From Acidimicrobiaceae bacterium (GTDB taxonomy: Bacteria > Actinomycetota > Acidimicrobiia > Acidimicrobiales > Ilumatobacteraceae), in assembly GCA_020637235.1 (NCBI GenBank), contig JACJWG010000015.1:2557-66556 (forward strand): a DNA stretch of 64,000 bases. Reading direction: 5' to 3'. Made by a program: the position numbers and the translations under genes. Below, piece by piece: positions 26,813 to 42,419 of the stretch. Position 1 is the stretch's first letter. Every line of letters begins with the position of its first letter. The notes beneath the pieces are model-generated. The model had not been told where the DNA came from and made no database searches. It saw only the letters and a list, made by a program, of their open reading frames with translations.

Positions 26813-28129
26813 TCAAGTGTCAAGAGTTCGTGTGGTTCCCGCCCGCCGCGACGACACCACGGCGAGCCGCCCGAACGCCACGAACACGACCGCCCACAGC
26901 AACATCCCCGTGACGCTCGACCCGGTGCGCGGGAACCGGTTCGCCACCCCGGTACCGCTCGTCGCCGACCCCGACGAACCCGACGTGCCGGACGAGCTGG
27001 ACGAACCGGTGCCGGCCGCCGACGCGACGGCGATCGTGGTGCTCGGCGTCGGCCCGGCCGCCCCGACGGCCGTCGACGAGGTGGCCGACGTCGACGAGGT
27101 CGGCCCAGCCGTCGTGGTCGGCCCGCCGCTCCCGACGATCGTCGTCGTCGTGGTCGTCGTGGTCGTCGTGGTCGTCGTGGTCGTCGTGGTCGTCGTGGTG
27201 GACCCCGGCACGACCACGAGCACGCCCTGCGTGAGCGCCCCCGGCGCCGTCGGTGCGTCGGCGAGCGCCTCCGCCGCCGGCTCGATCGCAGCATCGGTCG
27301 ACGCGTTCGCCGCGGCGGTCGGGGCATCGAGCACCGCCTCGGTCCGGGCCGCTCGGCCGGTCGCAGCGACAGGTGACGGCGGATCGAGCACGGTCGCCGA
27401 CACGGCGCCGACGCCGAGCCCACCCGACCCGCCCGATCCGTCGGTGTCGTCCGAACCCACCCGCCACACGAACCCCGCCGGCCCACCCTCGCCATCCGCG
27501 GTCACCGTGATCTCGAGCCACCACGTTCGTTCGACCACGTACACGACATCTCCAGAGTCACCAGGGTCACCGGCGTTTCCAGAGTCACCCGAGGGACTAG
27601 CGCCGACGGCCTCCGGCACGACACACACGAACCCGACCCGGTATCGGCCGTCGGGCAGGTCGCCTGGTTCGAGGTGTGTGAAACCGACGAGCGGTGCGGC
27701 GCCGATCGTGCCGTCGGGCTCGGTGGGCCGATGCACGATCGGCACCTCGTCGACGTGTGCCGCCAGCGGGACGATCGGCGAGTCCGGGGTCCACCCGAGC
27801 GGGCCGGTCTCGTCGAATCGAAGGGTCGCGGGATCGACCTCGTCAGGCACTGCGAACGAACTCCACCGTGTGCCCTGCGCATCGGTCGACGACCGACACG
27901 TGCGATCGAACGGCACGATCTGCAGCGAGATCGCGGTCGAGCTGTCGCCGCTGGTGGGTGAGATCACCAGCCCCGACGTCTCCACCCCGAGCGGCAGCGC
28001 TGCGGCGGCGTTCCCGGCGAACATCACACCCGACGCCACCATGCCGATGCGGGCGAGGAGCCGTCCCCAACTGCGGGGCGACGTGCGACGAACTCCCGAT
28101 CTACGTCGCCTCGCCTCGCGTGTGGACAT
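26813..28129 (-). CDS. secreted surface protein: two-Cys N-terminal domain + poly-Thr/Ser stalk + FPRTG sorting-signal-like C-terminus
   Basis: 438 aa with a signal-like N-terminus. The domain with C...RW...DGRYRVGFVC...W.EITVT is homologous to four other proteins in the window. There are 20 consecutive Thr. The C-terminus is FPRTG + hydrophobic segment + RRAG. Confidence 0.7.
   Translation of the reverse strand: MSTREARRRRSGVRRTSPRSWGRLLARIGMVASGVMFAGNAAAALPLGVETSGLVISPTSGDSSTAISLQIVPFDRTCRSSTDAQGTRWSSFAVPDEVDPATLRFDETGPLGWTPDSPIVPLAAHVDEVPIVHRPTEPDGTIGAAPLVGFTHLEPGDLPDGRYRVGFVCVVPEAVGASPSGDSGNAGDPGDSGDVVYVVERTWWLEITVTADGEGGPAGFVWRVGSDDTDGSGGSGGLGVGAVSATVLDPPSPVAATGRAARTEAVLDAPTAAANASTDAAIEPAAEALADAPTAPGALTQGVLVVVPGSTTTTTTTTTTTTTTTTTTTTIVGSGGPTTTAGPTSSTSATSSTAVGAAGPTPSTTIAVASAAGTGSSSSSGTSGSSGSATSGTGVANRFPRTGSSVTGMLLWAVVFVAFGRLAVVSSRRAGTTRTLDT
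27140..27199 (-). repeat. 60-nt ACC/ACG run encoding 20 consecutive Thr
   Basis: The plus strand reads (GTCGTCGTG)n. Frame was checked against ORF 26813..28129. Confidence 0.9.
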
Positions 28130-28369
28130 GCTGCTTTCCTCGTTCGTTCGCCGGCGACTCCGGGCCGTCGACCGACTGCGCCGACGCTAGGCGCCGACGA
28201 TGCAGCTGCGGACGACGGCTCGGTGACCACTGGTCGACCATCAGGTGAACTCTTCTCGAATGAGAGCCGCTCTTCAGTTGTCAAGGTGCCTGCGGTGCGC
28301 TGACGTGTGTCTCCCGGCCGTCGTGGTCTCGGGTCGCGCACCTGATGTGGCCAGGCGGGCCAGCGGGCA

Positions 28370-29746
28370 TCAGGCCCACTGCTGGGCGGGTGGTCCGGTG
28401 GTCATGATCACCTGGCCGTCGCGGCGGACGGTGAGCGACCGGTCGGCCGCCAGGTGCACGTCCCACCGTTCGCGGTGCAACCGGTCGTGATGATGCCGGC
28501 ACAGCGGCAGCAGCAGATGGAGATCGGTCGCCCCGCCGTGTTCCCAGAACTCGACGTGATGGGGTTCGGTGAGCGACACGTGCTGTTCGCACCCGGGCAC
28601 CCCGCAGGAGCGGTACATCGCTCGCAGCGCCCGCCGCTGCACGCGTGACGCATGCCTGCGCGCACGTCCGTGATCGAGCACCACTGGCCGTTCGATCGAG
28701 CCGAGCAGCTCGCCGACGGTTCGTACCGGTCGGCCCTGCGCGACCACCACCCCGTCCGCATCCAGGAGAACCGGGATGAACCGGGCCCGGCCCGCCAGAG
28801 CCAGCAACTCCTCGACCGGGACCTCGAGCCCGGCACCACAATCGACCCGCGACCGGTCGTGACGGCCGTGGAGCAGGGTGTCGTGGTCGATCACCACGAT
28901 GAACTCCGGTTGCCCCACCCCACCCGCCAGTCCGGACATGAGGTCGGCGAGTGCGTGCGCCCGTAGCCAGTCCTGCCCGGCCAGCGGATCGGTCGGGCAC
29001 TCCGGCGGGCGGGCCTGACGGAACCGCACCTCCAACTGGTGAGCGAGGCGTTGCTGCAACGCGATCGCGGAGGCGGGGTCGAACCTGCCGGCGATCCGCC
29101 ACATCCCCTCACGATCGGTCCACGTTCGCAGCCCGGTGTCGCGTCGCTGCCGGGCGAGCCGCGCTCGACCGTCGTCGCCCTCGATCCGGCGCACCTCGGC
29201 ACGCAGTCGGTCGCGGAACCTGGCCACCGACCAGCGACCGTCGATGGCGAGCCGAGCGAGCTCGGGCTCCAACGCACGCAACCGGTCCCGCAACGCGTCG
29301 GGCAACGACGCCACCGCATCGGTGAACGCATCGAGATGCTCACCACCCAACACACCCGCCTCGATCCCGGCCACCACCGACGGCGCCGCAACAGCAGCAC
29401 GCGCTCGACGCATCGACCGCCCCGCAGCCGCAGACGATCGGCCCGTCACCCCGGCATGCACACGATCCGGATCGATCCCCGCACCGGCATCCGCCAACGC
29501 ATCGAGCGCGCGGTTGCAGGCGATCTCGCGCCCGTCCAACACCCGACGACACGCCGTGATCGACGCCAACACCTCCGCCACCCCGTCGGCACCGAGTGCT
29601 TCGTGCGCGTCGAGATCGGCCAACAGCACACGGCGGAACCGTGCGACGAACCCCGACACGCCGTCGAGGGCTTCGCCGTCGCCCCGCAGCCCGTCGATGG
29701 GCGTCGCGTCGCACGAGACCTCATCGACATCGAGCGCCACCGCCAT
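28370..29746 (-). CDS. DUF222/HNH endonuclease-signature protein ('13E12 repeat'-type selfish-element-like gene)
   Basis: ATG at 29746 with a GGAGGTGGGG RBS. The C-terminus RRALRAMYRSCGVPGC...EPHHVEFWEHGGATDLHLLLPLCRHHHDRLH is the HNH signature typical of actinobacterial DUF222 proteins. Confidence 0.85.
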   Translation of the reverse strand: MAVALDVDEVSCDATPIDGLRGDGEALDGVSGFVARFRRVLLADLDAHEALGADGVAEVLASITACRRVLDGREIACNRALDALADAGAGIDPDRVHAGVTGRSSAAAGRSMRRARAAVAAPSVVAGIEAGVLGGEHLDAFTDAVASLPDALRDRLRALEPELARLAIDGRWSVARFRDRLRAEVRRIEGDDGRARLARQRRDTGLRTWTDREGMWRIAGRFDPASAIALQQRLAHQLEVRFRQARPPECPTDPLAGQDWLRAHALADLMSGLAGGVGQPEFIVVIDHDTLLHGRHDRSRVDCGAGLEVPVEELLALAGRARFIPVLLDADGVVVAQGRPVRTVGELLGSIERPVVLDHGRARRHASRVQRRALRAMYRSCGVPGCEQHVSLTEPHHVEFWEHGGATDLHLLLPLCRHHHDRLHRERWDVHLAADRSLTVRRDGQVIMTTGPPAQQWA

Positions 29747-29914
29747 CGCACCCCACCTCCTTCGCCACGGACGTGTCCGACCACGATGCGGAGACCATCC
29801 GACCGTGATCCGACTCTCGTTCGCCATCCGGCCGTCATGCAGCCGCCATCCAGCAACAGGGTCTTGAGGACCGATTCGTCCCGACCGCCACGTCGAGAAC
29901 TGACTCTGACTGTA

Positions 29915-29930
29915 TCGAACAGATGTTCGA
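29915..29930. promoter_or_regulatory. LexA (SOS/Cheo) box TCGAACAGATGTTCGA upstream of the HNH gene
   Basis: Perfect match to the Gram-positive/actinobacterial consensus TCGAAC-N4-GTTCGA. It lies 169 nt upstream of the HNH ATG in a 223-nt noncoding gap. Confidence 0.6.
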
Positions 29931-29938
29931 TCGACAAC

Positions 29939-29954
29939 CCCCGCGATCGCGGGG
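29939..29954 (-). terminator. 16-nt perfect GC palindrome CCCCGCGATCGCGGGG just downstream of the 29970 gene stop
   Basis: Read directly. Located 15 nt after the stop on the minus strand. No T tract, so function is uncertain. Confidence 0.3.
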
Positions 29955-29969
29955 AAGCGGCGGCGCTCG

Positions 29970-31157
29970 TCAGCGGCGACCGGCGACCGCGAAGGCGTCT
30001 TCGCTCGCCGCCGACGCCGCAGCCCCGGGTGCAGCGGCGCCCACCGCCGGCCGCTCGGACGGCATCTCGCGATCGACGAGTTCGCCACGCTCGACCCGCC
30101 GACGCACCCGCCAGCGCATCAGGAGCACACCGATGTTGAACACCACCAGCAGCACCACGCCGATGAGCAGCCACGGGCGATGGGTGGTGGTGAGCTCGTC
30201 GGTGACGGTGGGTCCGGCGCCCGAGGCGACGACCCGCCATTCCACGTCGCCGAACGACGGTGCCGGTACCTCGGCGACGACGCTCTGGCTCCACGTCTGT
30301 CCCACGCCGATCTGGCCGGGATCGTCGAACGGCAAGCTGGCGACGATGTCGGCGCCTCGGGTGGCGGTGGCCGAGAGTTGCACGTCGCGCAGTCCGGATG
30401 TCGACGTGTTCGTGACCCGCACCGTCACCTCGTAGGTGGCCGGTCCGCCGAGCTGGGCTCGGATCCCGCCGATCGCTCCGCTGGCACCGAGACCGGCTTC
30501 GATGGCGACGGTGAGCAAGGGACCGGTGACCTGTGGTTCGACCACCGGCCCGACCGGGTGCCCGGTGATCACGATCGGCGCGATCGCGATCTCACTGGTG
30601 TCGCGACCCACGGCCCGCAGCACGCACGGGCAATCGGTCGGTGGCGCCACGATCGGGATCGACATCCGCAATGGCGATCCGTCGATCGGGAACTCCTTGG
30701 TGACGCTGGCGGTCTGGTTGCAGTCGGGCGAGCCGCGGCGGGCCTCGTTGCCGCACACCGTCACGGTCGCCCAGATCGACTCGAACTGGTCGAGCGTGAC
30801 GATCACGCGCCCGCCCGGCGCCATCTCGGCGGCGTCGATCGACATCGACGGGCCCTCGACGATGCCCGGCGTCGACGACTCCGGCGTCGCGCCGTCAGGG
30901 GCCTGCGACGAGACCGCGGTGTCCGCCGTGGCGACCGTGGCGACCGTGGCAGCGGGGACGATGCTCGTGCCGGCGACGCTCGTGACCGACGCCTCGGCCG
31001 GTACCGACGCTGCGACGGTCGACGCCGGCACGGTCGACGCCGGGCTGGTGTCGGGTGTGGCCTCGTACGAGGCCGCCGCGGCACGCATGGTGACGAAGCC
31101 ACCGAACGCGCCGACGACGATCAGTGCCGCTGCGATCGCCGTGGCGCGTCCCTTCAC
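29970..31157 (-). CDS. bitopic membrane/surface protein (N-terminal anchor or signal, Ig-like middle, C-terminal TM + basic tail)
   Basis: GTG at 31157 overlaps the upstream stop (GTGA). 395 aa. Begins VKGRATAIAAALIVVGAFGG and ends PWLLIGVVLLVVFNIGVLLMRWRVRRR plus tail. Confidence 0.55.
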   Translation of the reverse strand: MKGRATAIAAALIVVGAFGGFVTMRAAAASYEATPDTSPASTVPASTVAASVPAEASVTSVAGTSIVPAATVATVATADTAVSSQAPDGATPESSTPGIVEGPSMSIDAAEMAPGGRVIVTLDQFESIWATVTVCGNEARRGSPDCNQTASVTKEFPIDGSPLRMSIPIVAPPTDCPCVLRAVGRDTSEIAIAPIVITGHPVGPVVEPQVTGPLLTVAIEAGLGASGAIGGIRAQLGGPATYEVTVRVTNTSTSGLRDVQLSATATRGADIVASLPFDDPGQIGVGQTWSQSVVAEVPAPSFGDVEWRVVASGAGPTVTDELTTTHRPWLLIGVVLLVVFNIGVLLMRWRVRRRVERGELVDREMPSERPAVGAAAPGAAASAASEDAFAVAGRR

Positions 31158-32305
31158 CGGAGCTGCGGTTCGCGGTCGCGGTCGTGATCGGTGCCGGGGA
31201 GCGTCCGCACGGCCGGCGCGACGGGCAGGGCGGCCATCCGGCGGCGGCGGTAGGCGCGGCGGGCGAGCAGCGCGAGCACCAGCAGGGCGAGCAGCAGCAG
31301 GATCGTGATCGGCGGTGCGAAGACGTTGGTGGATGCGACGGTGTCCTGCGCTCCCCCACGGGCGTTCGCCTCGTCGATGTCGATGCGCACCTCGGTGCGA
31401 TCGAGGAAGAGCGCCGGCACGCCGTCGAGGCTGGCGGTGAGGTCGATGGCCTGGCCGGGCAGGAGGTCGGTGATCGGGTCGAGCGTGATCTCCTTCTTCA
31501 TGAGACCGAACGGGCCGCCGACGGAGATGACCGGCGTGCCGCCGATGCGCACGTTGCCGCGGTTCTCGACCGAGAAGGTGACGTCGGCGCTGCCGCCGAA
31601 GGGGTTGGCCGAATGGCCGTACTCCGTCGACAGCGACGACACGGCCAGCTCGGCGGTCAGCTCTCCTTCCACCTGCACGTACAGGCGGGTGCCGGTGCGA
31701 CGCTCGACGTCGATCACCTGCCCGCTGCCGGTGTCCTCGGGCGTGACGCTGCCGGCGACGATCGCGCCGACGTGGTCTCCCGGTGCGGCGTCCACCGGAA
31801 CGGTCATCGTGAACGGGATGGTGGCCTGCTTGTTCGGTTCGAGGATGATCCGCTCCTGCACGAGCTGCACCCACGAGCCGGCGTCGACCGGCACGTCGTC
31901 GCCGGGCAGCAGGTCGAACTGGCCGTCGGCGTTGTTGAACGCATCGGTGGCGTACACGCGGAACTCGAGCGGCACGTTGCCGAGGTTGTAGAGCACCACG
32001 GTGTCCTCGATCACGGCTCCCGGCTGCACCTGGTAGGTGAAGTTGGGGCGGCTGCCGGGCTCGGAGCCGTCGGTGCCACCGCCGGTGGTGAGCGTCCAGC
32101 TCTGGACGATCTCGGGCGCGGGCGTAGCCACGTCGGTCTGCGCCGGATCGGTGCCTGCGGGCTCGGACGTCTGTGTTCCGTCGACCGACGTGTCGGGCAC
32201 GCTGGCGCTGGCGAACCCGCCGAGCGGTGCCGCAGGGGCGAGCGTGGACGCAGCGAGCAGGGAGGCGGCGAGCGCGGTGCGGATCGCATGGCGGCGGAAG
32301 TTCAT
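31154..32305 (-). CDS. DUF916/DUF3324-type cell-surface protein (CscA-like partner of WxL proteins), C-terminal TM anchor
   Basis: 383 aa with a signal peptide. FTYQVQPGAVIEDTVVLYNLGNVPLEFRVYATDAFNNADGQFDL, a second beta-sandwich-like half, then ITILLLLALLVLALLARRAYRRRR. Confidence 0.65.
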   Translation of the reverse strand: MNFRRHAIRTALAASLLAASTLAPAAPLGGFASASVPDTSVDGTQTSEPAGTDPAQTDVATPAPEIVQSWTLTTGGGTDGSEPGSRPNFTYQVQPGAVIEDTVVLYNLGNVPLEFRVYATDAFNNADGQFDLLPGDDVPVDAGSWVQLVQERIILEPNKQATIPFTMTVPVDAAPGDHVGAIVAGSVTPEDTGSGQVIDVERRTGTRLYVQVEGELTAELAVSSLSTEYGHSANPFGGSADVTFSVENRGNVRIGGTPVISVGGPFGLMKKEITLDPITDLLPGQAIDLTASLDGVPALFLDRTEVRIDIDEANARGGAQDTVASTNVFAPPITILLLLALLVLALLARRAYRRRRMAALPVAPAVRTLPGTDHDRDREPQLR

Positions 32306-32456
32306 GTATCGATCGCTCTCTGTGTGGCTCGAGCCGATGATGCGGCGAGCGGACCGGCGCAACGTAGCGAGGCTGTCTGGACGTCCGGTTGCCGCCGGGT
32401 GAACGGAGGTGGATGCGCGCATGAGCGCGCGAGGAATCGTCGGAGTCGTCGATGGC

Positions 32457-34433
32457 TCAGATGATGGTGAAGGTGAGCACACCGGAGTAGGTGCCGGCGT
32501 CGGCCGAGACCGGGATGAGCAGGTTGATGCGGGCATCCATCACAGCCATGCCGAGACCCGCACCAGCGTTCGCCTTCGACAGCGAGTTCGCCAGCGTGGT
32601 GTTGGTGCTGTTCGACGCATCACCCAGACCAGCCGTCGAGCTCGACGCGACCGGGAGGCGGGTGTCGCCCGCTGCCACCGTCATGTCGTAGCCGTCGAGG
32701 TTCGGGTTCGAGTCCCACGTCACCTCGGGCACCCAACCGAGCAGGTTGCCCGAGAAGCTGTCCGTGCCGCTGTTGAAGTTGCTCATCCGACCGTTCAACG
32801 TCCAGCCAGCATCGATGTCGCGGGTGTCCACGACCGTCAACTGAGCGATCCGACCCGTGCTGCGGAAGTACTGACCAGCCGACGGACCGCTCGTGACCAA
32901 CGAGGCGGTGCCGAGATCGATACCGCAGTTCGTGGCGTACGTCGCGATCGAGTCGCCGCTGCCGTCCACCGGGTACGGATACTGATCGAACAACCCATCA
33001 GGCTGACCAGCCGTCTCGGTCCCGACCGAGCCCACCCCGAACTCTCCCGAAACCTCCGGCAACGCATCCGCAACCGGAGCCGCGCCCATCGCAGCCGGCG
33101 GCACGACGTTCGGAGCCACGCCGGTGGGGTCGGCACCCGCAGTGGCCGCAAGGGCCGGCAACGTCGAGCCGAACAGGGCGTTCGAGTAGGCAGGGGCCGA
33201 ACCATGCACCCCACAGCGCTGCGTCAACACGAGCGCACCCTGCGGACGCACAACCGTGATGTCCTGCACCACGACCTGAGCGTTCACACAGGTGAACGTC
33301 GCCATGCCGGGAACCGTGACCTGACCGTTGCTGTAGTTGCCGACGACCTCGACCACGTAGCTGTCGGGTACCGCGCAGGCCACGCTGATGCTGTTGGTTG
33401 GTGCCGGGAGGGTTTGCGAGGCGATCGGCGCGGCCGAGCCGACGGGCACGAACGTGACCGTGTGGCTCACCAGCGTCGCGCCGCCCACCGGGCTACCGGT
33501 GCTCGGGGTCCACGACACCGTCACCGGGCTCGGACCGCTTGCAACTGCCACGACGGGGCGTGGGGCGAGCCAACCGTGGCACATGCAGACGGCCTGGGCG
33601 GCGGCAGCGGTGCTGCCGGCGTCGTTGGTCGCCGTGGCGACGATGTCGTACACGTCACCGTTGTTCAGACCGGTGAAACTGTAGGTGTACGGACCACCAG
33701 CCGGAATGCTCACCGGAGGCAGCGCCGGGCCAGCCGGGCTGGTCGGAGTCGCCGTCACCGTGTAACCCGTCACCGCAGGCGTCGCCGTCACCGGCGTGAT
33801 CTCACCCGTGATCTCCTGGAAACCGGCATCCGCGGTGAACACCGGAGCGGCCGGCTTGGTGCCGACGACCCAGTTGAGCGACGTGGTCGGGACCGTGTCC
33901 TTCACCGTGATCGTCGTCTCCCAGTACTTCTCCGTACCGGTCGCCGTCTTGTAGCACGCGAACCCGATCTTGTACTGACCATCGACCAGACCAGCAGCCA
34001 GGTTCGTGTTCAGGTTCAACGTCGACGTCCCCGAGATCGTGTACGGCGAGGCGGTGCCGATCGTCGTCTTCGCGATCTGCGGCGAACCCGTCGTCGAGTA
34101 CAACGGCTGGGCGATCGCACCAGCCGGCGCACCCGCCGGCAACTGCGGACCCGACGCAGTCCAGGTGAGCGTGCCCGCATCCACCGACGCCGACGTCAGA
34201 TACTGACCCCACCGGAAACCGTCCACCGAGGCATTCCCCGGGCAACCGTTGTTCGGCGCGGTCAAGGTCAACGAGAACGTCGTCGAGTTCGTACCCGAGT
34301 TCACGCTGATGTTCTGGCCCGGCGTCGCCGGCGTACCCGGAGGCAACGCCGACACACCCCCGACACCAACCACACTCGCCGACACCAGCGCCCCGACCAA
34401 CAGCCACCCCGACCTCGAGCCACGACCCACCAC
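32457..34433 (-). CDS. WxL-type surface protein, paralogue 1 (two-Cys N-domain + FN3-like repeats + C-terminal WxL-like domain)
   Basis: GTG at 34433 with GGAGGT 8 nt upstream, giving a signal-like N-terminus RGSRSGWLLVGALVSASVVGVGGVSA. The C-terminus has DTRDIDAGWTLNGRMSNF...GNLLGWVPEV...AGTYSGVLTFTII. Confidence 0.7.
   Translation of the reverse strand: MVGRGSRSGWLLVGALVSASVVGVGGVSALPPGTPATPGQNISVNSGTNSTTFSLTLTAPNNGCPGNASVDGFRWGQYLTSASVDAGTLTWTASGPQLPAGAPAGAIAQPLYSTTGSPQIAKTTIGTASPYTISGTSTLNLNTNLAAGLVDGQYKIGFACYKTATGTEKYWETTITVKDTVPTTSLNWVVGTKPAAPVFTADAGFQEITGEITPVTATPAVTGYTVTATPTSPAGPALPPVSIPAGGPYTYSFTGLNNGDVYDIVATATNDAGSTAAAAQAVCMCHGWLAPRPVVAVASGPSPVTVSWTPSTGSPVGGATLVSHTVTFVPVGSAAPIASQTLPAPTNSISVACAVPDSYVVEVVGNYSNGQVTVPGMATFTCVNAQVVVQDITVVRPQGALVLTQRCGVHGSAPAYSNALFGSTLPALAATAGADPTGVAPNVVPPAAMGAAPVADALPEVSGEFGVGSVGTETAGQPDGLFDQYPYPVDGSGDSIATYATNCGIDLGTASLVTSGPSAGQYFRSTGRIAQLTVVDTRDIDAGWTLNGRMSNFNSGTDSFSGNLLGWVPEVTWDSNPNLDGYDMTVAAGDTRLPVASSSTAGLGDASNSTNTTLANSLSKANAGAGLGMAVMDARINLLIPVSADAGTYSGVLTFTII
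33228..34357. repeat. 1.13-kb near-identical copy A of the duplicated tract (partner at 35446-36575, offset 2218)
   Basis: Identical embedded ORFs sit at offset 2218 (33388..33684 = 35606..35902; 34006..34206 = 36224..36424). I saw one mismatch (34275 vs 36493). Both tract boundaries are sharp. Confidence 0.85.
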
Positions 34434-34650: not shown

Positions 34651-36657
34651 TCAGACGATGGTGAACGTGAGCACACCCTTGTAGGTGCCGGCGTCTGCCG
34701 AGACCGGGATCAACAGGTTGATCCGGGCATCCATCACAGCCATACCCAGACCTGCACCAACATTGGCCTTCGACAGCGAGTTTGCCAGCGTGGTGTTCGC
34801 CGGGTCCTGAGCGCCGAGACCGGCCGCCGAGGTCGACGCGACCGGCAAGCGCTCACCGCCCGCCGTGACGGTCATGTCATAGCCGTCGAGGTTCGGGTTC
34901 GAGTCCCACGTTACCTCGGGCACCCAACCGAGCAGGTTGCCCGAGAACTTCTCCGTCGCGGCGGTGTTGCCACCGAGGAAGAAGTCGCCCATCCGACCGT
35001 TCAACGTCCAGCCGGCGTCAGCGTCGCGGGTGTCCACGACGGTCAGCTGAGCGATCCGACCGGTGCTGCGGAAGTACTGACCAGCCGACGGACCGCTCGT
35101 GATCAGGCGAGCCTGCTCGAGAGTGATGCCGCAGTTGGTCGGGTAGGTGGCGATCGAGTCACCGTTGCCGTCCACCGGGTACGGGTACTGGTTGAACAGC
35201 ACGTCACCCGCACCAGGGGCGGTTTGCTGGCCGAGCGGGCCGACCGGGTTGGTCCCGAACGAGTTCGGGTCCGCAGCAGCGTCGTCACCCACCGGAGCCG
35301 TGCCCACCGCTGCCGGCGGCAGGATGTTCGGAGCCGTGCCGGTCGGATCGGCATCCGTGGTCGCCGTCAGAGCCGGGAACTGCGGGCCGAACAGGGCATT
35401 CGAGTACGCCGGGGCCGAGCCGTGCACGCCGCAGCGCTGGGTGAGCACGAGCGCACCCTGCGGACGCACAACCGTGATGTCCTGCACCACGACCTGAGCG
35501 TTCACACAGGTGAACGTCGCCATGCCGGGAACCGTGACCTGACCGTTGCTGTAGTTGCCGACGACCTCGACCACGTAGCTGTCGGGTACCGCGCAGGCCA
35601 CGCTGATGCTGTTGGTTGGTGCCGGGAGGGTTTGCGAGGCGATCGGCGCGGCCGAGCCGACGGGCACGAACGTGACCGTGTGGCTCACCAGCGTCGCGCC
35701 GCCCACCGGGCTACCGGTGCTCGGGGTCCACGACACCGTCACCGGGCTCGGACCGCTTGCAACTGCCACGACGGGGCGTGGGGCGAGCCAACCGTGGCAC
35801 ATGCAGACGGCCTGGGCGGCGGCAGCGGTGCTGCCGGCGTCGTTGGTCGCCGTGGCGACGATGTCGTACACGTCACCGTTGTTCAGACCGGTGAAACTGT
35901 AGGTGTACGGACCACCAGCCGGAATGCTCACCGGAGGCAGCGCCGGGCCAGCCGGGCTGGTCGGAGTCGCCGTCACCGTGTAACCCGTCACCGCAGGCGT
36001 CGCCGTCACCGGCGTGATCTCACCCGTGATCTCCTGGAAACCGGCATCCGCGGTGAACACCGGAGCGGCCGGCTTGGTGCCGACGACCCAGTTGAGCGAC
36101 GTGGTCGGGACCGTGTCCTTCACCGTGATCGTCGTCTCCCAGTACTTCTCCGTACCGGTCGCCGTCTTGTAGCACGCGAACCCGATCTTGTACTGACCAT
36201 CGACCAGACCAGCAGCCAGGTTCGTGTTCAGGTTCAACGTCGACGTCCCCGAGATCGTGTACGGCGAGGCGGTGCCGATCGTCGTCTTCGCGATCTGCGG
36301 CGAACCCGTCGTCGAGTACAACGGCTGGGCGATCGCACCAGCCGGCGCACCCGCCGGCAACTGCGGACCCGACGCAGTCCAGGTGAGCGTGCCCGCATCC
36401 ACCGACGCCGACGTCAGATACTGACCCCACCGGAAACCGTCCACCGAGGCATTCCCCGGGCAACCGTTGTTCGGCGCGGTCAAGGTCAACGAAAACGTCG
36501 TCGAGTTCGTACCCGAGTTCACGCTGATGTTCTGGCCCGGCGTCGCCGGCGTACCCGGAGGCAACGCCGACACACTCCCGGTGCCGAAGACGCTCACCGA
36601 CGCGGCGGCTGCGAGTGCCGTCGTGATGGCGAGCGAACGCTTCATGTTGATACGCAT
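34651..36657 (-). CDS. WxL-type surface protein, paralogue 2
   Basis: 668 aa with a classical signal peptide MRINMKRSLAITTALAAAASVSVFGTGSVSA. Same architecture as paralogue 1. The C-terminus is ...GWTLNGRMGDF...GNLLGWVPEV...AGTYKGVLTFTIV. Confidence 0.8.
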   Translation of the reverse strand: MRINMKRSLAITTALAAAASVSVFGTGSVSALPPGTPATPGQNISVNSGTNSTTFSLTLTAPNNGCPGNASVDGFRWGQYLTSASVDAGTLTWTASGPQLPAGAPAGAIAQPLYSTTGSPQIAKTTIGTASPYTISGTSTLNLNTNLAAGLVDGQYKIGFACYKTATGTEKYWETTITVKDTVPTTSLNWVVGTKPAAPVFTADAGFQEITGEITPVTATPAVTGYTVTATPTSPAGPALPPVSIPAGGPYTYSFTGLNNGDVYDIVATATNDAGSTAAAAQAVCMCHGWLAPRPVVAVASGPSPVTVSWTPSTGSPVGGATLVSHTVTFVPVGSAAPIASQTLPAPTNSISVACAVPDSYVVEVVGNYSNGQVTVPGMATFTCVNAQVVVQDITVVRPQGALVLTQRCGVHGSAPAYSNALFGPQFPALTATTDADPTGTAPNILPPAAVGTAPVGDDAAADPNSFGTNPVGPLGQQTAPGAGDVLFNQYPYPVDGNGDSIATYPTNCGITLEQARLITSGPSAGQYFRSTGRIAQLTVVDTRDADAGWTLNGRMGDFFLGGNTAATEKFSGNLLGWVPEVTWDSNPNLDGYDMTVTAGGERLPVASTSAAGLGAQDPANTTLANSLSKANVGAGLGMAVMDARINLLIPVSADAGTYKGVLTFTIV
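35446..36575. repeat. 1.13-kb near-identical copy B of the duplicated tract
   Basis: See 33228-34357. Confidence 0.85.
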
Positions 36658-36698
36658 GATGTTTGATTCGTTCCTTCTGTGGTGGTTCGAGGGGAGGC

Positions 36699-37889
36699 TC
36701 AGAGCTGACCCGAGACGAGGTCACCGGTGATGGTGGTGACGCCGCAGTCGGGGGCGACGAGGAAGCCGAAGGTGTTGATGGTCGCGGTGGCCTGGCAGAT
36801 CTGCGAGGTCGGTCCGACGAACAGGTCCTTCAGGTCGGCGTTGCCGAAGCCGGTGATGATGCCGGTCGGGAACACGTTGTAGATGCGGCGACCGAACACC
36901 GAGTCGGCGAAGAACGTCGCGTTCGGGGCCAGGTTCGGGGCGGTGCCGGTGATCGGCGAACCGAGGTTGGTGCCCGAACCGTTGTTGCTCACCGAGCCGA
37001 TGAGCACCTCGGCCGGCGGGGTGGGCACGGCGACGCCGTTCGACTTGGCGATGTAGGCGCCAGCCGAGAAGCCGATCACGACCTGGCTGTTGGCCTCACC
37101 GGCCAGCGCGACGAGGGCGTCTCCGGCGGCCTTGAGCTCCACCGCGTTGTTCTCCTGCAGGCGGCCGTTCGGCTGGCTGCCGGCGTTGAGGCTGCGGCAC
37201 AGCGTGGTGGCGCTGGCCTCGTCGCTGACGCTCACACCTGCAGCGGTGTTCCAGAAGGCGTAGGTACCCGAGCCATCCTGGATGCCACAGGGCACCATGC
37301 GGACGCCACCGATCTCCTGCGGGCCCGTGGTGAACAGCGCGTCGAGCTCGGCGCGGGTCATCGTGGTGACCGGCGAACCGGCCGGACGATAGACCGCGAA
37401 GCTGATGCCGTCACGTGCGAACGGGATGTAGGTCAGCGCACCCGAGTTGCCCGAGGGACCCGACGACGAGCGGGCGAAGTCGACCAGACCCGAGACGTCG
37501 GCGATGCCGCACTCGGCGCTGCCGTAGCCGGTGCCGTCCTGCGCGCGGCTGAGCGCACGGCGGCCCTGGGTCGAACCGTTGGGGCGGGTGAAGGTCGGCG
37601 CACCGATCTTCGGGGTGACGCAGTTGTCGGCGGCGCCGGCCGGAGGCGTGGCGTCGAACGAGATGACCTGACGACCACCGGTCGCGGCCGAGCTCTGGAT
37701 CGGCGTGTACAGGATGCCGTTGGACTTGCCCGCCAGGGCGTTCAGCACGTCCTGGCTCGTGTCGGAGCCGAAGCCCGCAAGTGCGCCGAACTGGGCGGGG
37801 TCGGCGCTCGCCGATCCCACCATCGTGCTGGCTGCCAGCGCCGTGGCGACGAGGCCGAAGCCGAGCCGCTTCTTCTTGGAAATGAACAT
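36699..37889 (-). CDS. secreted PstS-fold (PBP-like type 2) substrate-binding-domain protein
   Basis: ATG at 37889 gives the signal peptide MFISKKKRLGFGLVATALAASTMVGSASA. GSDTSQDVLNALAG, FARSSSGPS, IPFARDGISFAV and GSGTYAFW resemble the phosphate-binding-protein superfamily. Confidence 0.65.
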   Translation of the reverse strand: MFISKKKRLGFGLVATALAASTMVGSASADPAQFGALAGFGSDTSQDVLNALAGKSNGILYTPIQSSAATGGRQVISFDATPPAGAADNCVTPKIGAPTFTRPNGSTQGRRALSRAQDGTGYGSAECGIADVSGLVDFARSSSGPSGNSGALTYIPFARDGISFAVYRPAGSPVTTMTRAELDALFTTGPQEIGGVRMVPCGIQDGSGTYAFWNTAAGVSVSDEASATTLCRSLNAGSQPNGRLQENNAVELKAAGDALVALAGEANSQVVIGFSAGAYIAKSNGVAVPTPPAEVLIGSVSNNGSGTNLGSPITGTAPNLAPNATFFADSVFGRRIYNVFPTGIITGFGNADLKDLFVGPTSQICQATATINTFGFLVAPDCGVTTITGDLVSGQL

Positions 37890-38153
37890 GTTCTGGACGA
37901 TCCCTTCGATCGGTTGTTCTCCGCCCACTCGCTGAGTGGCGGGGGGATCGTGACAGGGCGAACTTTCGTCCAGTTGGCCTCAAGATGAACACAGACAGTG
38001 ATTTCGAAGTGTTCATCTCCGCGTCGTGCAGCGCTCAACCAACCACCACCGTCCCGTCGTCTCGTGCCGGAGCACGCGTCGCGCGACGCGCTAGGGCATG
38101 CACACGCGACGATGACCCGATGCCATCCAGGCGCACCGGGTCATTGAGATCAG

Positions 38154-38171
38154 GTCGAGCAATTGCTCGAC
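38154..38171 (-). terminator. perfect 18-nt palindrome GTCGAGCAATTGCTCGAC 8 nt after the pstB stop
   Basis: Read directly. It forms a 7-bp stem with an AATT loop and has no U tract. It is followed by a ~260-nt lower-GC noncoding region. Confidence 0.4.
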
Positions 38172-38178
38172 TTCGTGG

Positions 38179-39654
38179 TCAGCCGAAACGACCGTTGACG
38201 TAGTCGAAGGTTCGCGGGTCCTGTGGGTCCTCGAACATCAGGTTGGTGGGGCCGTGCTCGACGATCACGCCTGGCGTGCCCTGCTCGGCGAGGAAGAACG
38301 CACAATGGTCCGACACGCGGTTCGCTTGTTGCATGTTGTGGGTGACGATCACGATCGTCACTTCGGAGACGATCTGCATGATCGTCTCCTCGATCCGTCG
38401 GGTCGACGTGGGGTCGAGTGCGGAGCACGGCTCGTCCATCAACAGCACACGCGGTGTCAGCGCCAGCGCCCGAGCGATGCAGAGTCGCTGTTGCTGGCCA
38501 CCGCTCAAGCCGCCACCTGGTTGCCTCAGTCGGTCCTTCACCTCGTTCCAGAGTCCGGCCTTGGTGAGGCACGACTCGACGATCTCGTCCTTCAGCGACG
38601 GGCTCGCCTTCACGCCGGTGAGCCGGAAGCTCGCGAGGACGTTGTCGTAGATCGACATCGCCGGGAACGGATTGGGTTTCTGAAACACCATGCCCACCTC
38701 CCGACGTGCGTCGGTGAGCTTGCGTTCCGGGTCGTAGATGTCGTGTCCGTCGACGAGGACCTGCCCGCCCATCTGGGCGCCGGGGATCATCTCGTGCATG
38801 CGGTTCAGGATCCGCAAGAACGTCGACTTGCCGCACCCGGACGGACCGATGAGCGCGGTCACCCTGCCCGGCTCCATCGTCAGCGACACACGGTCGAGCA
38901 CCAACCGAGAGCCGAACCACGCCGAGATGTTGCGGGCGTCGATGCCGGCGAGCGCCTGGTTCGGCGGTGTGAGGTCTGCCATCGACATCGCTTGTGAACG
39001 ACGGCCACGGCGGCCTGGCGTCTCCCCGCCGACGGACGCCGGCGCCAGCGGCCCCGGGGCGGTGCGTCGCGGCACCGTGTCGAACCCGAGATCCGGCTGG
39101 ACGACGAACGCACCGTTCGGCGGCGGCGGGGCGCCGAACACCAGCTCGTCGGTGAGCGGCAGCGAACCCGGCTCGTTCGTCACCGTGATGGGCGCGATCA
39201 GCGTCGGAGGCGGCGGCGCGAACTGGACCGCCGACGGCCACCCCGCCTCCGGCATCGAGACGGGTGCGGCGATGGCAGCCCGCTGATGGCGGACGTGCAC
39301 GCGGTGCATCCCGTCGAACAAGCCGCGGAACTCCGCGACACGGTCGGCCGGCACCGTGACGCCGAAGTCGGGGATGTCCGGCACCACCATGATCGACCAC
39401 GTGCCGTTGGATGCGTGCACGATGGCCTCGAGGTCGTCGAGGTGCCACGCCCACACGTCGTCGCCAACGTCGGCGACCACCCGCCGGTTCGTGACCGTCA
39501 CCTCGGCCGGCTGCAGCTCGACGACCATCGAGTCGGGATCGTCGGGCTGGCCGTGCACCACCTGGACGACCGCAGCGCCCGGGAACCGAGCGAAGGTGGT
39601 CTCTCCGGTGGGCCCGTCGGTCGGCGGGCGCATCGAGGGCGGATCGATGGTCAT
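38179..39654 (-). CDS. pstB: phosphate ABC transporter ATP-binding protein PstB with 222-aa N-terminal extension
   Basis: The C-terminal 269 aa (from MSMADL, codon at 38988) are canonical PstB: GPSGCGKSTFLR, MVFQKPNPFP, LSGGQQQRLCIARAL, LLMDEPCSALDP, THNMQQA. The upstream 222 codons are in the same frame without a stop and show the same strong third-position GC bias. Confidence 0.85.
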   Translation of the reverse strand: MTIDPPSMRPPTDGPTGETTFARFPGAAVVQVVHGQPDDPDSMVVELQPAEVTVTNRRVVADVGDDVWAWHLDDLEAIVHASNGTWSIMVVPDIPDFGVTVPADRVAEFRGLFDGMHRVHVRHQRAAIAAPVSMPEAGWPSAVQFAPPPPTLIAPITVTNEPGSLPLTDELVFGAPPPPNGAFVVQPDLGFDTVPRRTAPGPLAPASVGGETPGRRGRRSQAMSMADLTPPNQALAGIDARNISAWFGSRLVLDRVSLTMEPGRVTALIGPSGCGKSTFLRILNRMHEMIPGAQMGGQVLVDGHDIYDPERKLTDARREVGMVFQKPNPFPAMSIYDNVLASFRLTGVKASPSLKDEIVESCLTKAGLWNEVKDRLRQPGGGLSGGQQQRLCIARALALTPRVLLMDEPCSALDPTSTRRIEETIMQIVSEVTIVIVTHNMQQANRVSDHCAFFLAEQGTPGVIVEHGPTNLMFEDPQDPRTFDYVNGRFG

Positions 39655-39691
39655 GTGGTCGGTTCTCCTCGGTCGTCGCAGCGGCGAGCGA

Positions 39692-40654
39692 TCACGTCAG
39701 GTTCGGGAGCAGTTTGGCGATCTCCGCGCTCGCGCTGATGCCGACGAGCGTGAGGGGCGGCGTGAACACGATCCACGCCTGCGCACGTCCCCAACGAGTC
39801 CATGCCCAGATCGCAAGGACGGAGAGCACGGTGAGCGCCTGCATCCACAACGCCAGCGCCCACACGGTGTCGGTCTGATTGCCCATGGCGCGTTCGTGCT
39901 CGCCGAGCGCAGCAGCACTGATGGCGCGTGCGTCTCCCACGACCGCTTGGCCGACGAGATCGGCGTCGACACGGAGCACGCCGCTCGACAGGAACGGTGA
40001 TCCATCGGCGGTGACGAGCATCAGTCGAGATCCGCCGGCAGGCGCTGCGGGCGGCAGAGGGTCCCCGGCTCGTCGCACGCCGATCACTGCGTACTCGAAG
40101 GTGCCTTGGCCGGTCGTCACGACGATCCGGTCGTCGACTCGGAGATCGCCGAGGTCGTCGAAGGGTCCGCCATAGGTGGAGGCCCGTCCGAACAGCACCG
40201 TCGATCCGACCTGTCCGGGAAGCTGCGTGTCCCGGCGGTGCCCCGGACCGTCGAACAGCACCTCGGCCGAGGTGCCTTCGGCGACGATCGTCTCGAGCCC
40301 GATCGCGCGGATCTCCATGTACGCCACCGGCGTTCCGTCGGCGAGCTCGACGCCGTCTGCGTCGGCTGGACCGATCGGGGCAGTGCCCTGGGCCAGCTCT
40401 GATCGGAACTCGTTGTACATGCGCGTCTGCGCAGAGCGCTGCTGGAGCCCGCTCACGAGACCGAGGTGCAGCAGCAGTGACACCGACAACACGAGGGCCA
40501 TGATCAGCATCGCCCGGACCAACTGAAGTCGAGGGCTGAGAGGCGGGATGCCGCTGCGTTCGTGCCGTTCGCTGACCGGCGCGAACCGCCGACGGCTCCC
40601 GCCCCTGCCTCCGCCGTCGCCACGGCCTCGGGCGACGGCCGTCGCGGCGGTCAT
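39692..40654 (-). CDS. sortase-fold protein lacking catalytic His and Cys (pseudo-sortase), extra C-terminal TM segments
   Basis: 320 aa. The ATG overlaps the upstream stop (ATGA). Sortase-like GPGHRRDTQLPGQVGSTVLFGRASTYGGPF (expected ..AGHR..) and RLMLVTADGSPF (expected ..TLxTC..). The conserved Arg is kept in LRVDADLVG. Confidence 0.65.
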   Translation of the reverse strand: MTAATAVARGRGDGGGRGGSRRRFAPVSERHERSGIPPLSPRLQLVRAMLIMALVLSVSLLLHLGLVSGLQQRSAQTRMYNEFRSELAQGTAPIGPADADGVELADGTPVAYMEIRAIGLETIVAEGTSAEVLFDGPGHRRDTQLPGQVGSTVLFGRASTYGGPFDDLGDLRVDDRIVVTTGQGTFEYAVIGVRRAGDPLPPAAPAGGSRLMLVTADGSPFLSSGVLRVDADLVGQAVVGDARAISAAALGEHERAMGNQTDTVWALALWMQALTVLSVLAIWAWTRWGRAQAWIVFTPPLTLVGISASAEIAKLLPNLT

Positions 40655-41643
40655 GCCGATCCGACCGGGATGACGCGGATCGGGCGTGCGAGCAGCACCG
40701 CCATGCGCCCGAACACCACGAGCAGCACCGACCAGACGATGATGCGGATTGTGTGCGACGGCCCGGTCTCCGGGATCGTGCCGCCGGAGCCGGAGCCCGT
40801 TCCGGAGCTGCCGACCGAGAAGCCGCCGCTGGACGACGACGCTGCCGCCGCGCTCGCGACCTGCGTCGTCGAGGTCGTCGTGCTCCCGGCGACGCTGGTG
40901 CTGGTGGTGGAGCCGCCGGCCACCGTCGTCGACGTCGTCGTCGACCCACCGGCGACGGTCGTCGACGTCGTCGAGCTCGTGGACGTGGTGCTGGTGGTGC
41001 TCGACGTCGTACTGGTGGTCGTGGTGGTCGGAGCGATGGCGGCTGCGGTCCACGTGAACTTGGCCGGCCCGCCGGCGTCGGCATCCGGGGTGACGGTGAA
41101 CTGCATCTGCCAGTAGCGCTCGGTCGTGCCCGCCTTCGTGCAGGCGTAGCCGATCTTGTACGTGCCGGCCGTGAGCGCGTTGTCCGGGTACTGGGCGAAG
41201 TTCAGCTCGACGGTGCCGATGATCATGCCCTTGGGCTCGGTGCCGGTGAGCTTGTTCACCTGCGGTGTACCGCCGGTCGCGCTCAGCAGCGGGAAGGCCT
41301 TCGATCCTGCGGGCGCAATCGGTCCGCTCGCGTTGAACTTCAGCACGGCGACGTCGACGTCGTCGGACACCAAGAAGTTGTGCCAGCGATAGCCGTCGAC
41401 CGCCGAGTCGCCCGGACAGACGTTGTTCGGCGCGGCGAGCGCCAACGAGAACGGCGTGGAGCTGTTCCCGGACTCCACCGAGATCGACAGCCCCTCGGTC
41501 GCCGGAGCACCCGCGACGAGTGGTTCGGCCGATGCGCCGAACGCGCCGACGACGCTGATCGCGAGCATCGCTGCGGAGAGGACGGCACCGCCGCGCGCTG
41601 CAGCGAGCAACGCCCGTCGGCGGGCGAAGGAATTCGTGTTCAT
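40651..41643 (-). CDS. secreted surface protein: two-Cys N-domain + Thr/Ser stalk + IPETG sorting signal
   Basis: 330 aa with a signal peptide. Domain: NNVCPGDSAVDGYRWHNFL...GTYKIGYACTK...RYWQMQFTV. The C-terminus is IPETG + IIVWSVLLVVFGRMAVLLA + RPIR. Confidence 0.75.
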   Translation of the reverse strand: MNTNSFARRRALLAAARGGAVLSAAMLAISVVGAFGASAEPLVAGAPATEGLSISVESGNSSTPFSLALAAPNNVCPGDSAVDGYRWHNFLVSDDVDVAVLKFNASGPIAPAGSKAFPLLSATGGTPQVNKLTGTEPKGMIIGTVELNFAQYPDNALTAGTYKIGYACTKAGTTERYWQMQFTVTPDADAGGPAKFTWTAAAIAPTTTTTSTTSSTTSTTSTSSTTSTTVAGGSTTTSTTVAGGSTTSTSVAGSTTTSTTQVASAAAASSSSGGFSVGSSGTGSGSGGTIPETGPSHTIRIIVWSVLLVVFGRMAVLLARPIRVIPVGSA

Positions 41644-42419
41644 CGGAGTGCTCCTGCGCGAGACGATGTGGACGAAGGGGGGTTCTGTGAACGGCGGCGG
41701 ACCATCCACCAACCGCCGCCAAGGGCGATCGCCAGCGCCGCGGCCCCGGCGATGTAGGGCCAGCGGCGAGACTCGGGCTCGAGGGTCTGCGCCGCGATCG
41801 CGTCGGCGGGAGCATCGACAGCGGTCCAGGTGAACTGCGCCGGCTCGTCGTCGGGATCGGCCACGATCTCGATCTCGGCGTCCCAGTACCTGGCGGTCTG
41901 GCGGAAGTACGTGCACGCGACCCCGATGCGGTAGCGGCCTGGTGCCACCGCATCGGGTGGGAAGATGGTGAAGGTCAGCTCGGGCAGCAGTGGGATCCGC
42001 GCCTCCATGCCCGGGCCGGCGTTCACCGGCAGCAGCTGATGGGCGTACGGCTTGGTGTCGAAGGCGAAGAGGGGGAACTGCGTGCCCTCCGGGCCGATCA
42101 CGCCGTACTCGACCTGCCCCGGATCGTGCGACGCCGGGATCAGGAAGGTCTGCACGCGCCAGTCGTCGTTGGCGCTGTCGCCAGGACAGGTGGACCCTTC
42201 GGGCAGGACCAGCGTGTACGGCGTCGCACTCCCTCCGCTCGCGAGCGGAGTGCCGTCTGGTGCGGCGATCACGACCGACCCCTCGTCGACCGCTGGTCCC
42301 ACGTCCTCCGGCACGAGGCCCCCGGCCGCCGCCGCACTCGCGACTGCCAGACCACCGATCGTGCCGAGGATCGCGGAACGGCCCCACCGCCTGCGAGTTC
42401 GCATGATGTCACCGCTCAT
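41640..42419 (-). CDS. secreted/anchored protein with divergent two-Cys N-domain and C-terminal TM
   Basis: 259 aa. STCPGDSANDDWRVQTFL...GRYRIGVACT...RYWDAEIEI...AQFTWTAV, then WPYIAGAAALAIALGGGWWMVRRR. ATGA overlaps on both sides. Confidence 0.7.
   Translation of the reverse strand: MSGDIMRTRRRWGRSAILGTIGGLAVASAAAAGGLVPEDVGPAVDEGSVVIAAPDGTPLASGGSATPYTLVLPEGSTCPGDSANDDWRVQTFLIPASHDPGQVEYGVIGPEGTQFPLFAFDTKPYAHQLLPVNAGPGMEARIPLLPELTFTIFPPDAVAPGRYRIGVACTYFRQTARYWDAEIEIVADPDDEPAQFTWTAVDAPADAIAAQTLEPESRRWPYIAGAAALAIALGGGWWMVRRRSQNPPSSTSSRAGALR

Follow-up and report, generated by a model that had tools for sequence, protein, structure and literature searches.

A previously unclassified two-cysteine head domain on differently anchored secreted proteins in a pst-linked gene cluster of an Acidimicrobiia bacterium

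Why would one bacterium place the same small domain at the head of several secreted proteins that are fastened to its envelope in different ways? The question is raised by a 64,000-nt stretch of contig JACJWG010000015.1 (assembly GCA_020637235.1, positions 2,557 to 66,556; hereafter the window) from an Acidimicrobiaceae bacterium of the family Ilumatobacteraceae; the window has a G+C content of about 70%. An earlier note, made by eye from the sequence, described five proteins with a common two-Cys N-terminal domain that its author did not recognise, and proposed that this conserved head sits on interchangeable anchors as a ligand-binding or adhesin module. All five open reading frames (ORFs) are present on the minus strand at the coordinates noted there, and are named A (26813-28129), B (32457-34433), C (34651-36657), D (40651-41643) and E (41640-42419).

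The head domain, its fold and its distribution

The five genes encode a common N-terminal domain of about 155 residues, which we call the head. BLASTP comparisons of the N-terminal segments (about 180 residues, composition-based statistics) give E-values of 1.5e-9 for A/B, 4e-22 for A/D, 4e-9 for A/E, 7e-40 for B/D, 1.4e-10 for B/E and 2.6e-24 for D/E, all of the order of 1e-9 or lower. A hidden Markov model (HMM) built from 50 family sequences matches exactly these five ORFs in the six-frame translation of the whole window (E-values 2.8e-39 to 1.6e-55); no sixth copy was found by this search, in which the next match has an E-value above 6. The similarity is not a compositional artefact, as the composition-corrected BLASTP is significant for all pairs and the HMM matches only the five ORFs, and the shared domain of the earlier note is thus borne out. 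The HMM envelopes, all on the minus strand, lie at 27458-27985 (A), 33867-34352 (B), 36085-36570 (C), 41047-41520 (D) and 41823-42263 (E). The motifs CPGD/CPGN, Y(K/R)(I/V)G.(A/V)C, (R/K)YW and P..F.W, which had been picked out by eye, are found as well. A deviates as the most diverged head, with CRSS in place of CPGD, RTW in place of RYW, and a Gly/Ser/Asp-rich insert of about 24 residues after the second Cys. The heads of B and C are 100% identical, so the window holds four independent head sequences and not five. The identity extends to a 1047-nt DNA tract (33228-34274 in B and 35446-36492 in C, minus strand) with flanks of 50-88% identity, a pattern suggestive of gene conversion, or of a partial duplication that took place very recently. 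The GTG at 34433 is one among several candidate starts of B, the ORF being open to 34580.

The head contains exactly two Cys in 156 of 159 best family representatives, and each Cys column is 99% conserved. In A (Cys codons 27896-27898 and 27623-27625), D (41416-41418 and 41140-41142) and E (42186-42188 and 41913-41915), this pair is the sole Cys of the whole protein; B and C have six more downstream. Because the pair is near-invariant and the domain is secreted, a disulfide would be the simplest reading. The AlphaFold2 model, computed from the 50-sequence alignment, is all-beta and confident, with a mean predicted local distance difference test score (pLDDT) of 96.2 and a predicted TM-score of 0.90. 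The earlier note had proposed AlphaFold modelling to judge whether the two Cys could pair in an Ig-like fold. DSSP assigns 11 strands and one short helix to the model; of the two Cys, C40 belongs to the CPGD loop and C132 to the long strand at 124-134. The head is probably a disulfide-stapled immunoglobulin-like (Ig-like) sandwich. Conserved positions other than the Cys are mostly Gly, Pro, Tyr, Trp and Leu, with T27, D43, R50 and D61 in addition, and the conserved Gly, Pro, Cys, Tyr and Trp appear to be of the kind that usually builds a fold. In the strand G-T-Y-K-I-G-Y-A-C, the invariant Tyr, Ile and Cys would lie on one face, which we read as core. Variability peaks between the two Cys (profile columns ~70-115), in a stretch that also carries many indels. 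This profile looks like that of a scaffold with a variable stretch that would carry specificity, and does not suggest a catalytic site.

No model in Pfam-A 2025 or NCBIfam r20 (June 2026) covers the head in the five proteins, and none of 50 diverse family members has a head match in Pfam at threshold. An hmmsearch of PDB sequences with the head profile returned nothing significant (best E-value 0.43). Foldseek comparison of the pLDDT-96 model with the PDB gave no match at an E-value of 0.001 or lower (best E-value 0.019, TM-score at most 0.47), and comparison with the viral library BFVD gave nothing. The best Foldseek matches are generic Ig-like sandwiches (the Asf1 core, Ig-like GH2 domains and GM2 activator/MD-1). 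These are all-beta, two-sheet folds of similar size, but with TM-scores of 0.2-0.47, E-values of at least 0.019 and about 10% identity they carry no sign of homology or shared function; an earlier model from a shallow alignment (pLDDT 79) drew the same weak matches. There is no Pfam NEAT match to the head, and no NEAT structure is among the top 50 Foldseek matches. With Pfam, NCBIfam, the PDB profile search and Foldseek against the PDB and BFVD all negative, a known domain was rejected as the identity of the head. It is hardly likely that the head is a diverged member of a described family (NEAT, CnaB/pilin, Fn3, DUF5979, CBM or similar) that insensitive searches passed over. In favour of such an origin are sub-threshold Pfam matches to DUF5979 (E-value 0.028, in D) and DUF5620 (E-value 0.0019, in 3 of the 50 members), the Ig-like sandwiches that Foldseek lists at TM-scores of 0.3-0.47, and the reliance of the comparison on Pfam, NCBIfam, PDB and BFVD. 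Conversely, 0 of 50 diverse members reaches any Pfam threshold, NCBIfam is empty for the head, the PDB profile search is empty, and a very confident model has no PDB neighbour at an E-value below 0.01. The head is a previously unclassified domain family, new by the libraries searched (Pfam-A, NCBIfam, PDB), in agreement with the failure to recognise it by eye.

An exhaustive HMM search of 1.84 billion cluster representatives recovered 1007 proteins at an E-value of 1e-3 or lower, 764 at 1e-10 or lower and 268 at 1e-30 or lower, which corresponds to a family of about 1,000 clusters at 50% identity that carry the head. Taxa and names were read for the best 150 of the 1007 matches. Among these, the only named sources are Ilumatobacteraceae, Acidimicrobiaceae, Acidimicrobiales, 'Actinomycetes bacterium' and Actinomycetota metagenome-assembled genomes (MAGs), and the products are called 'hypothetical protein' or bear a spurious label taken from the C-terminus. 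The phyletic distribution, a further check proposed earlier, is thus confined among the matches listed to MAGs of Acidimicrobiia/Actinomycetota. A census of genome collections with a closer head alignment as query found at least 14 MAG loci, and the source lineage occurs in at least 20 DNA runs of activated sludge or wastewater from at least 9 studies. In the Ilumatobacteraceae MAG protein P0010 (NCBI), the reading frames of E and D are joined by out-of-frame sequence. Since the window has this region intact, the fusion is probably an assembly frameshift error.

Anchors of the head and the sortase homologue

The head is always N-terminal in family members and is therefore probably the distal module. 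It is followed by Thr/Ser stalks, Fn3, Big_5, InlB B-repeats, SLH and WxL-like domains, sorting signals or transmembrane helices; no enzyme domain was found among these partners. Anchor classes were counted on the 159 best representatives. The sorting-signal class accounts for 60 of them (median 331 residues); an LPXTG-like motif (LPRTG, IPVTG, LSRTG, LPATG and others) is followed by a distinctive membrane segment, W..LLLVFGRMAVLLGRP. A further 59 have only a transmembrane helix (median 260 residues), 17 end in a WxL-like domain (median 635 residues), and the remaining ones are truncated or frameshifted. The three kinds of anchor described downstream of the heads in the window, a WxL-like domain, a Thr/Ser stalk with xPxTG and a transmembrane segment, and a plain transmembrane helix, are therefore real classes.

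In the window, A and D belong to the sorting-signal class. Protein A (438 residues) comprises a signal peptide, the head, a stalk of 20 Thr (27140-27202), FPRTG (26921-26935) and a transmembrane segment with an FGRLAV core (26855-26905). Protein D (330 residues) is built alike, with a signal peptide, the head, a Thr/Ser stalk at about 40864-41028, IPETG at 40762-40776 and a transmembrane segment with an FGRMAVLLARP core at 40687-40749. Both combine the FPRTG or IPETG motif with a transmembrane segment and Arg residues, and neither matches Pfam Gram_pos_anchor or the NCBIfam LPXTG models. The sorting-signal core W..LLLVFGR(M/I)A(V/I)LLGRP..V, with an Arg within the hydrophobic segment, is shared by D (40687-40776, minus strand), A (26855-26935, minus strand) and the 60 relatives. 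This core, also written FGR(M/L)AVLL(G/A)RP, always co-occurs with the sortase homologue described below and is unmatched in the sorting-signal models of Pfam and NCBIfam.

Protein E (259 residues) has a signal peptide, the head, a single transmembrane helix (41700-41762) and a short basic cytoplasmic tail. Proteins with only a transmembrane helix carry, in about half of the cases, a motif x-K-(E/D)-x-x(-x) at the very C-terminus, with K-E/D four or five residues from the end; of the 59 representatives, 26 have K-E/D and 5 have Q-E. The motif, found for example in loci L007-L012 and L016 but lacking in E of the window, may dock a cytoplasmic partner.

The WxL-like class is represented by B and C. 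Protein B (about 658 residues) has a signal peptide, the head, two Fn3 domains, a linker and a C-terminal WxL-like domain (32460-33239) with GWTL (32796-32807), LGW (32733-32741) and a terminal LTFTII; its paralogue C (668 residues) has the identical head, two Fn3 domains and a WxL-like domain at 34654-35457. Fn3 is the only Pfam-A or NCBIfam domain found in the two proteins by threshold scans. The C-terminal domain matches PF13731 (WxL) with an E-value of 0.0095 and 16.4 bits against a cut-off of 25, over profile positions 89-209 of 214 and extending to the C-terminus. Across the 17 relatives, DTRD..GWTL and LGW are conserved, and the terminal motif reads LTFTI(I/V). The WxL-like assignment of the earlier note has in its favour that the match reaches the C-terminus with GWTL and LGW kept, and against it the score below the cut-off. 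A fourth wall attachment mode is seen in the metagenomic protein P0015, in which two tandem heads are followed by Fn3 and SLH; P0017 and P0018 likewise have two heads each.

In a maximum-likelihood tree of 136 heads, those with only a transmembrane helix group in a single coherent clade, which takes in 36 of 41 rows; the other five are likely misclassified. The WxL-type heads are mixed with the sorting-signal heads, and well-supported branches force at least 4 switches. The head of D is 99% identical to that of the metagenomic protein P0006, which ends in a WxL-like domain. On the strength of the mixed branches and this near-identity, heads have moved repeatedly between sorting-signal and WxL contexts, and the membrane form is an old, stable paralogue. 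The idea of one head on interchangeable anchors accordingly holds for sorting signals and WxL-like domains, which were swapped, and for SLH in one relative, but not for the set as a whole, as all three classes co-occur in each of 12 clusters.

The only sortase homologue nearby is class E-like (39692..40654, minus strand), and its start overlaps the stop of D. It matches the class E sortase model only weakly (66 bits against a cut-off of 160). In the window, LFGRAS has Arg at the site of the catalytic His, and LVTAD has Ala at that of the catalytic Cys. The alignment of ten clusters (the window and the related loci L001, L007, L008, L010, L012 and L015-L018) gives the same result throughout: the His of A-G-H-R is Arg in 10/10 (L/F-G-R-x), and the Cys of T-L-x-T-C is Ala in 7 and Ser in 3. 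The catalytic Arg varies across the aligned clusters. The homologue retains an N-terminal transmembrane segment and a conserved C-terminal membrane region, WxRWGRAQAW. As both catalytic residues are replaced in all 10 clusters, the sequence predicts a conserved pseudoenzyme, and this gene cannot be credited with attaching A and D covalently to the wall. Either A and D are anchored by another sortase, or they are retained in the membrane, possibly bound by the pseudo-sortase through the conserved sorting signal. A sortase-polymerised pilin was ruled out, given a sortase homologue without His and Cys and no pilin signature. Our search of the literature on Cys-less sortases and on links between pst and sortase genes in Acidimicrobiia found nothing relevant.

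The pst-linked gene cluster

The head genes lie in a cluster of about 23 kb that contains the genes of a phosphate (Pst) transporter. Twelve loci are long enough to judge its organisation (the window, L001, L007, L008, L010, L012, L015-L018, L020 and L021), and the gene order is the same in all of them (12/12). The order is pstC, pstA, pstS, a secreted protein of ~900 residues, a head with only a transmembrane helix, one to three heads with sorting signals, the sortase homologue and pstB. After pstB follow a secreted protein of ~400 residues, the head-Fn3-WxL protein, a WxLIP/DUF916-like protein and a transmembrane-anchored protein of ~320-390 residues. One or two more heads with sorting signals often close the cluster, represented in the window by gene A. 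All three anchor classes hence co-occur in fixed order in 12/12 long loci. Start and stop codons overlap by 4 nt (minus strand) between PstS and the ~900-residue protein (Big), between Big and E, between E and D, and between D and the sortase homologue, so that E and D are translationally coupled within the pst operon.

The permease genes pstA (47300-48925) and pstC (48598-49908, as ORF) are at the head of the operon, on the minus strand like all genes described here. PstS (657 residues, 45322..47295) has a complete PBP_like_2 domain, a linker in which nine PTAGGAT repeats follow one PAAGGAAT, and a C-terminal transmembrane helix. Because of this linker and helix, it is predicted to be tethered at its C-terminus rather than to be a lipoprotein. 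By eye, PstS keeps ASD and GSG(S/T), the phosphate-binding motifs of E. coli PstS. Against NCBIfam, PstA and PstC score above the cut-offs, and PstB (332 bits versus 343) and PstS (177 bits versus 205) are strong sub-threshold matches; the pst genes look genuine. PstB (38179..39654) has an N-terminal extension of about 230 residues that is conserved in all related clusters; within the extension (38989-39654), the first ~125 residues are 35-51% identical in all of them.

Two further secreted proteins of the cluster show weak similarity to PstS. Big (969 residues, 42416..45325) has a Ser/Thr-rich stalk, a C-terminal transmembrane helix and weak PstS-like similarity near residues 783-899. P366 (409 residues, 36699..37928) occurs in every cluster and has weak profile similarity to PstS. 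Searches of PDB sequences with Big, P366 and the WxL-like domain returned nothing. Directly downstream of B lies the gene of the WxLIP/DUF916-like protein (31154..32305), which has a C-terminal transmembrane helix and corresponds to the membrane chaperone found in WxL clusters. It matches WxLIP_PGBD (E-value 4.1e-8, 33.7 bits against a cut-off of 27.3), and the arrangement is kept in all long loci. P299 (29970..31157) is secreted and anchored by a C-terminal transmembrane helix. Over its last ~110 residues it is related to the C-terminal part of the WxLIP-like protein (hhalign probability 90%, E-value 1.4e-6), and it looks like a second, diverged WxLIP-type protein. Profile alignment (hhalign) of the head gave a negative result for each of Big, P366, P299, WxLIP, PstS, the sortase homologue and the PstB extension. 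An apparent hhalign match between the head and the WxL-like domain was rejected, having been traced to head residues that remained in short proteins.

Gene A is separated from the cluster by an ORF (28370-30088, minus strand) with only sub-threshold HNH-like matches (Pfam HNH, E-value 0.12). This ORF looks like an insertion, because L006/L010 and L011 carry extra sorting-signal heads directly after the cluster. Gene A also adjoins polysaccharide-synthesis genes, a CapD-like dehydratase and a GT2. At the opposite end, immediately upstream of pstC, an ORF (49620-51047, minus strand) encodes a highly charged protein in which numerous (E/R)-rich repeats (EEMRRAEEMRRVEE...) stand in tandem; it matched no Pfam family. 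Only fragments of related sequence occur in four metatranscriptomes. The WxLIP gene is matched by an 861-nt contig at 97% identity, P366 and P299 by contigs of about 330 nt, and D over 98 nt. Other metatranscriptome matches are mostly of 20-30 nt, at chance level. The fragments are compatible with transcription in relatives, but they prove little and cannot serve to map the operon.

Possible functions and known counterparts

We lean, with moderate confidence, towards reading the head of these five paralogous secreted envelope proteins as a non-catalytic binding or docking module, displayed at three envelope depths and acting with Pst. The head would be presented at the membrane by E, on a stalk in the wall by D and A, and at the wall surface through the WxL-like domain by B and C, where it may be the payload of a WxL-type tip adhesin by analogy with Elr of Bacillota. 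This triad would work with the co-transcribed Pst transporter and the tethered PstS-like proteins. It might capture a phosphorus-containing or particulate ligand, pass it inward, or scaffold PstS-like binding proteins across the wall. The conserved co-occurrence of the three levels and the coupling to pst argue for joint action with the transporter and not for independent adhesins. Ligand binding or adhesion itself, which the earlier note expected, is inferred from architecture. Several observations weigh against this reading. Orthophosphate is small and should need no relay through the wall. The only nearby sortase homologue is catalytically dead, and the 'wall' tier may be membrane-retained. 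The cluster lacks a small WxL pilin, so the Elr pilus model is inapplicable as it stands, and the WxL match of B and C is under the Pfam threshold. The conserved polar residues D43, R50 and D61 (D-head numbering) make up no recognisable site, and the transcript evidence for the cluster is fragmentary.

A far more specific form, which we consider quite unlikely, is an envelope-spanning, Isd-like apparatus for phosphorus capture and delivery in a monoderm actinobacterium, with the head triad as its core. In such an apparatus, the outer head of B/C, held by WxL, would be assembled by DUF916-type strand complementation. The stalked middle head of D/A would be held by the dead sortase acting as a receptor for the conserved sorting signal. 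The tail of the membrane head (E-type), which often ends in the K-E/D motif, could talk to the extra N-terminal domain of PstB. At PstCAB, the heads would then dock a phosphate-containing ligand or pass it on, or they would organise the three tethered PstS-like binders. If true, no WxL/DUF916 assembly system would have been described before it outside Bacillota, and none with a coupling to a nutrient transporter.

Two other accounts compete with the favoured reading. The five proteins could form a plain adhesin family, in which the head attaches to external surfaces such as the exopolysaccharide of flocs or biofilms, particles of mineral or organic matter, or other cells, and the linkage to pst reflects co-regulation only, for example under phosphate starvation. 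The architecture is adhesin-like, with an N-terminal head on Thr-rich stalks, Fn3 spacers and anchors of the WxL, SLH and LPXTG type; the organism lives in activated-sludge flocs, gene A adjoins the CapD-like dehydratase and GT2 of polysaccharide synthesis, and WxL tip adhesins carry variable binding payloads. However, the stalkless E type sits at membrane level under the wall and cannot reach an external surface, and the translational coupling of E and D in the pst operon, conserved in 12/12 loci, is tighter than co-regulation needs. A plain adhesin family is a possible but unlikely explanation. Alternatively, the heads may bind no external ligand and instead polymerise or stack, by strand complementation with WxL or head to head, into a wall-spanning fibre or lattice with the membrane form as base, the sorting-signal form as shaft or anchor and the WxL form as cap. 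The triad in fixed order in every cluster would suit such an assembly, as would the way in which WxL clusters assemble, where a membrane chaperone and an LPxTG base subunit take part in donor-strand exchange. Heads with only a transmembrane helix have an extra conserved N-terminal G-x-V-x-(I/V)-V strand, and the dead sortase could be a non-catalytic receptor for the conserved FGRMAVLLGRP sorting signals. Yet the AlphaFold2 model of a single head is a complete, self-sufficient fold (pLDDT 96), the head has no profile similarity by hhalign to the WxL domain or to other proteins of the cluster, and the cluster contains no pilin motif, E-box or active sortase. We regard the assembly of heads into a fibre or lattice as decidedly improbable.

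The locus is of interest for several reasons. The head defines a sizeable unannotated family of about 1,000 sequence clusters, in the Acidimicrobiia, which are abundant and poorly cultured in lakes, soils and wastewater plants. Machinery of the WxL/DUF916 type, reported as confined to Bacillota, would here be present in Actinomycetota, without a pilin and with the head as payload. Surface-display genes and a pseudo-sortase inside a pst operon suggest a dedicated wall-spanning structure in phosphate acquisition, which would bear on phosphorus cycling and on enhanced biological phosphorus removal.

The closest counterparts in gene content are the WxL clusters of Bacillota (Csc, Elr), which bring together WxL proteins of both small and large size with a DUF916/DUF3324 membrane protein (WxLIP) and a small LPXTG protein (PMC1534035, PMC10599100). 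The WxL cluster of Enterococcus faecalis builds a pilus by chaperone-guided donor-strand exchange, according to an October 2026 preprint (bioRxiv 10.64898/2026.10.17.759780). In Elr, the DUF916 membrane protein complements the WxL fold and the LPxTG protein is the base subunit; the large WxL proteins act as tip adhesins, in which the WxL module at the C-terminus is invariant and the payload at the N-terminus varies and mostly lacks annotation. The preprint reports the operons from Bacillota only; among the chaperones, a small satellite belongs to Actinomycetota (bioRxiv 10.64898/2026.10.17.759780).

B and C are laid out like these tip adhesins: the payload is N-terminal, Ig-like spacers follow, and the WxL-like domain comes last. 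The window further resembles these clusters in the adjoining DUF916/WxLIP-like gene with a C-terminal transmembrane helix, in the LPXTG-type proteins within the cluster and in the secretion of all products. In contrast, the host is an actinobacterium (Acidimicrobiia), and the small WxL pilin of the Bacillota clusters has no counterpart in the window. A search of 19 loci with an HMM of the cluster's WxL-like domain found no small WxL pilin; the domain occurs only in head-Fn3-WxL proteins, once per cluster. Compared with Pfam WxL, the WxL domain of the window is sub-threshold and its terminal W-x-L motif reads F-T-I. The LPXTG-type proteins carry a folded head, whereas the Elr type has a bare donor strand. 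Unlike Csc and Elr, the cluster is fused to a pst operon and includes a catalytically dead sortase. From its gene content, it appears to be a pilin-less actinobacterial variant of WxL/Csc-type surface clusters.

A and D also share a layout with sortase-anchored MSCRAMM adhesins and Gram-positive pilins, namely a signal peptide, an N-terminal beta-sandwich, a Thr/Ser-rich stalk, xPxTG, a hydrophobic segment and a basic tail. They differ in having no CnaA/CnaB, pilin-motif or E-box signature, in their own conserved sorting core FGR(M/L)AVLL(G/A)RP, and in a neighbouring sortase without Cys and His.

For the tiered display beside a transporter, the nearest functional analogy is the Isd system of Staphylococcus aureus, in which the NEAT beta-sandwich is found on proteins at different envelope depths, together with an ATP-binding cassette (ABC) importer and a dedicated sortase. 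Both systems place one small beta-sandwich domain on several differently anchored proteins and co-encode an ABC importer and a sortase gene. The head is not NEAT, the transporter is Pst for phosphate and not a haem importer, and the sortase homologue is inactive. Isd-like transfer of a ligand between heads would be pure conjecture, and the likeness to Isd is one of resemblance only: a common domain displayed in tiers next to an importer.

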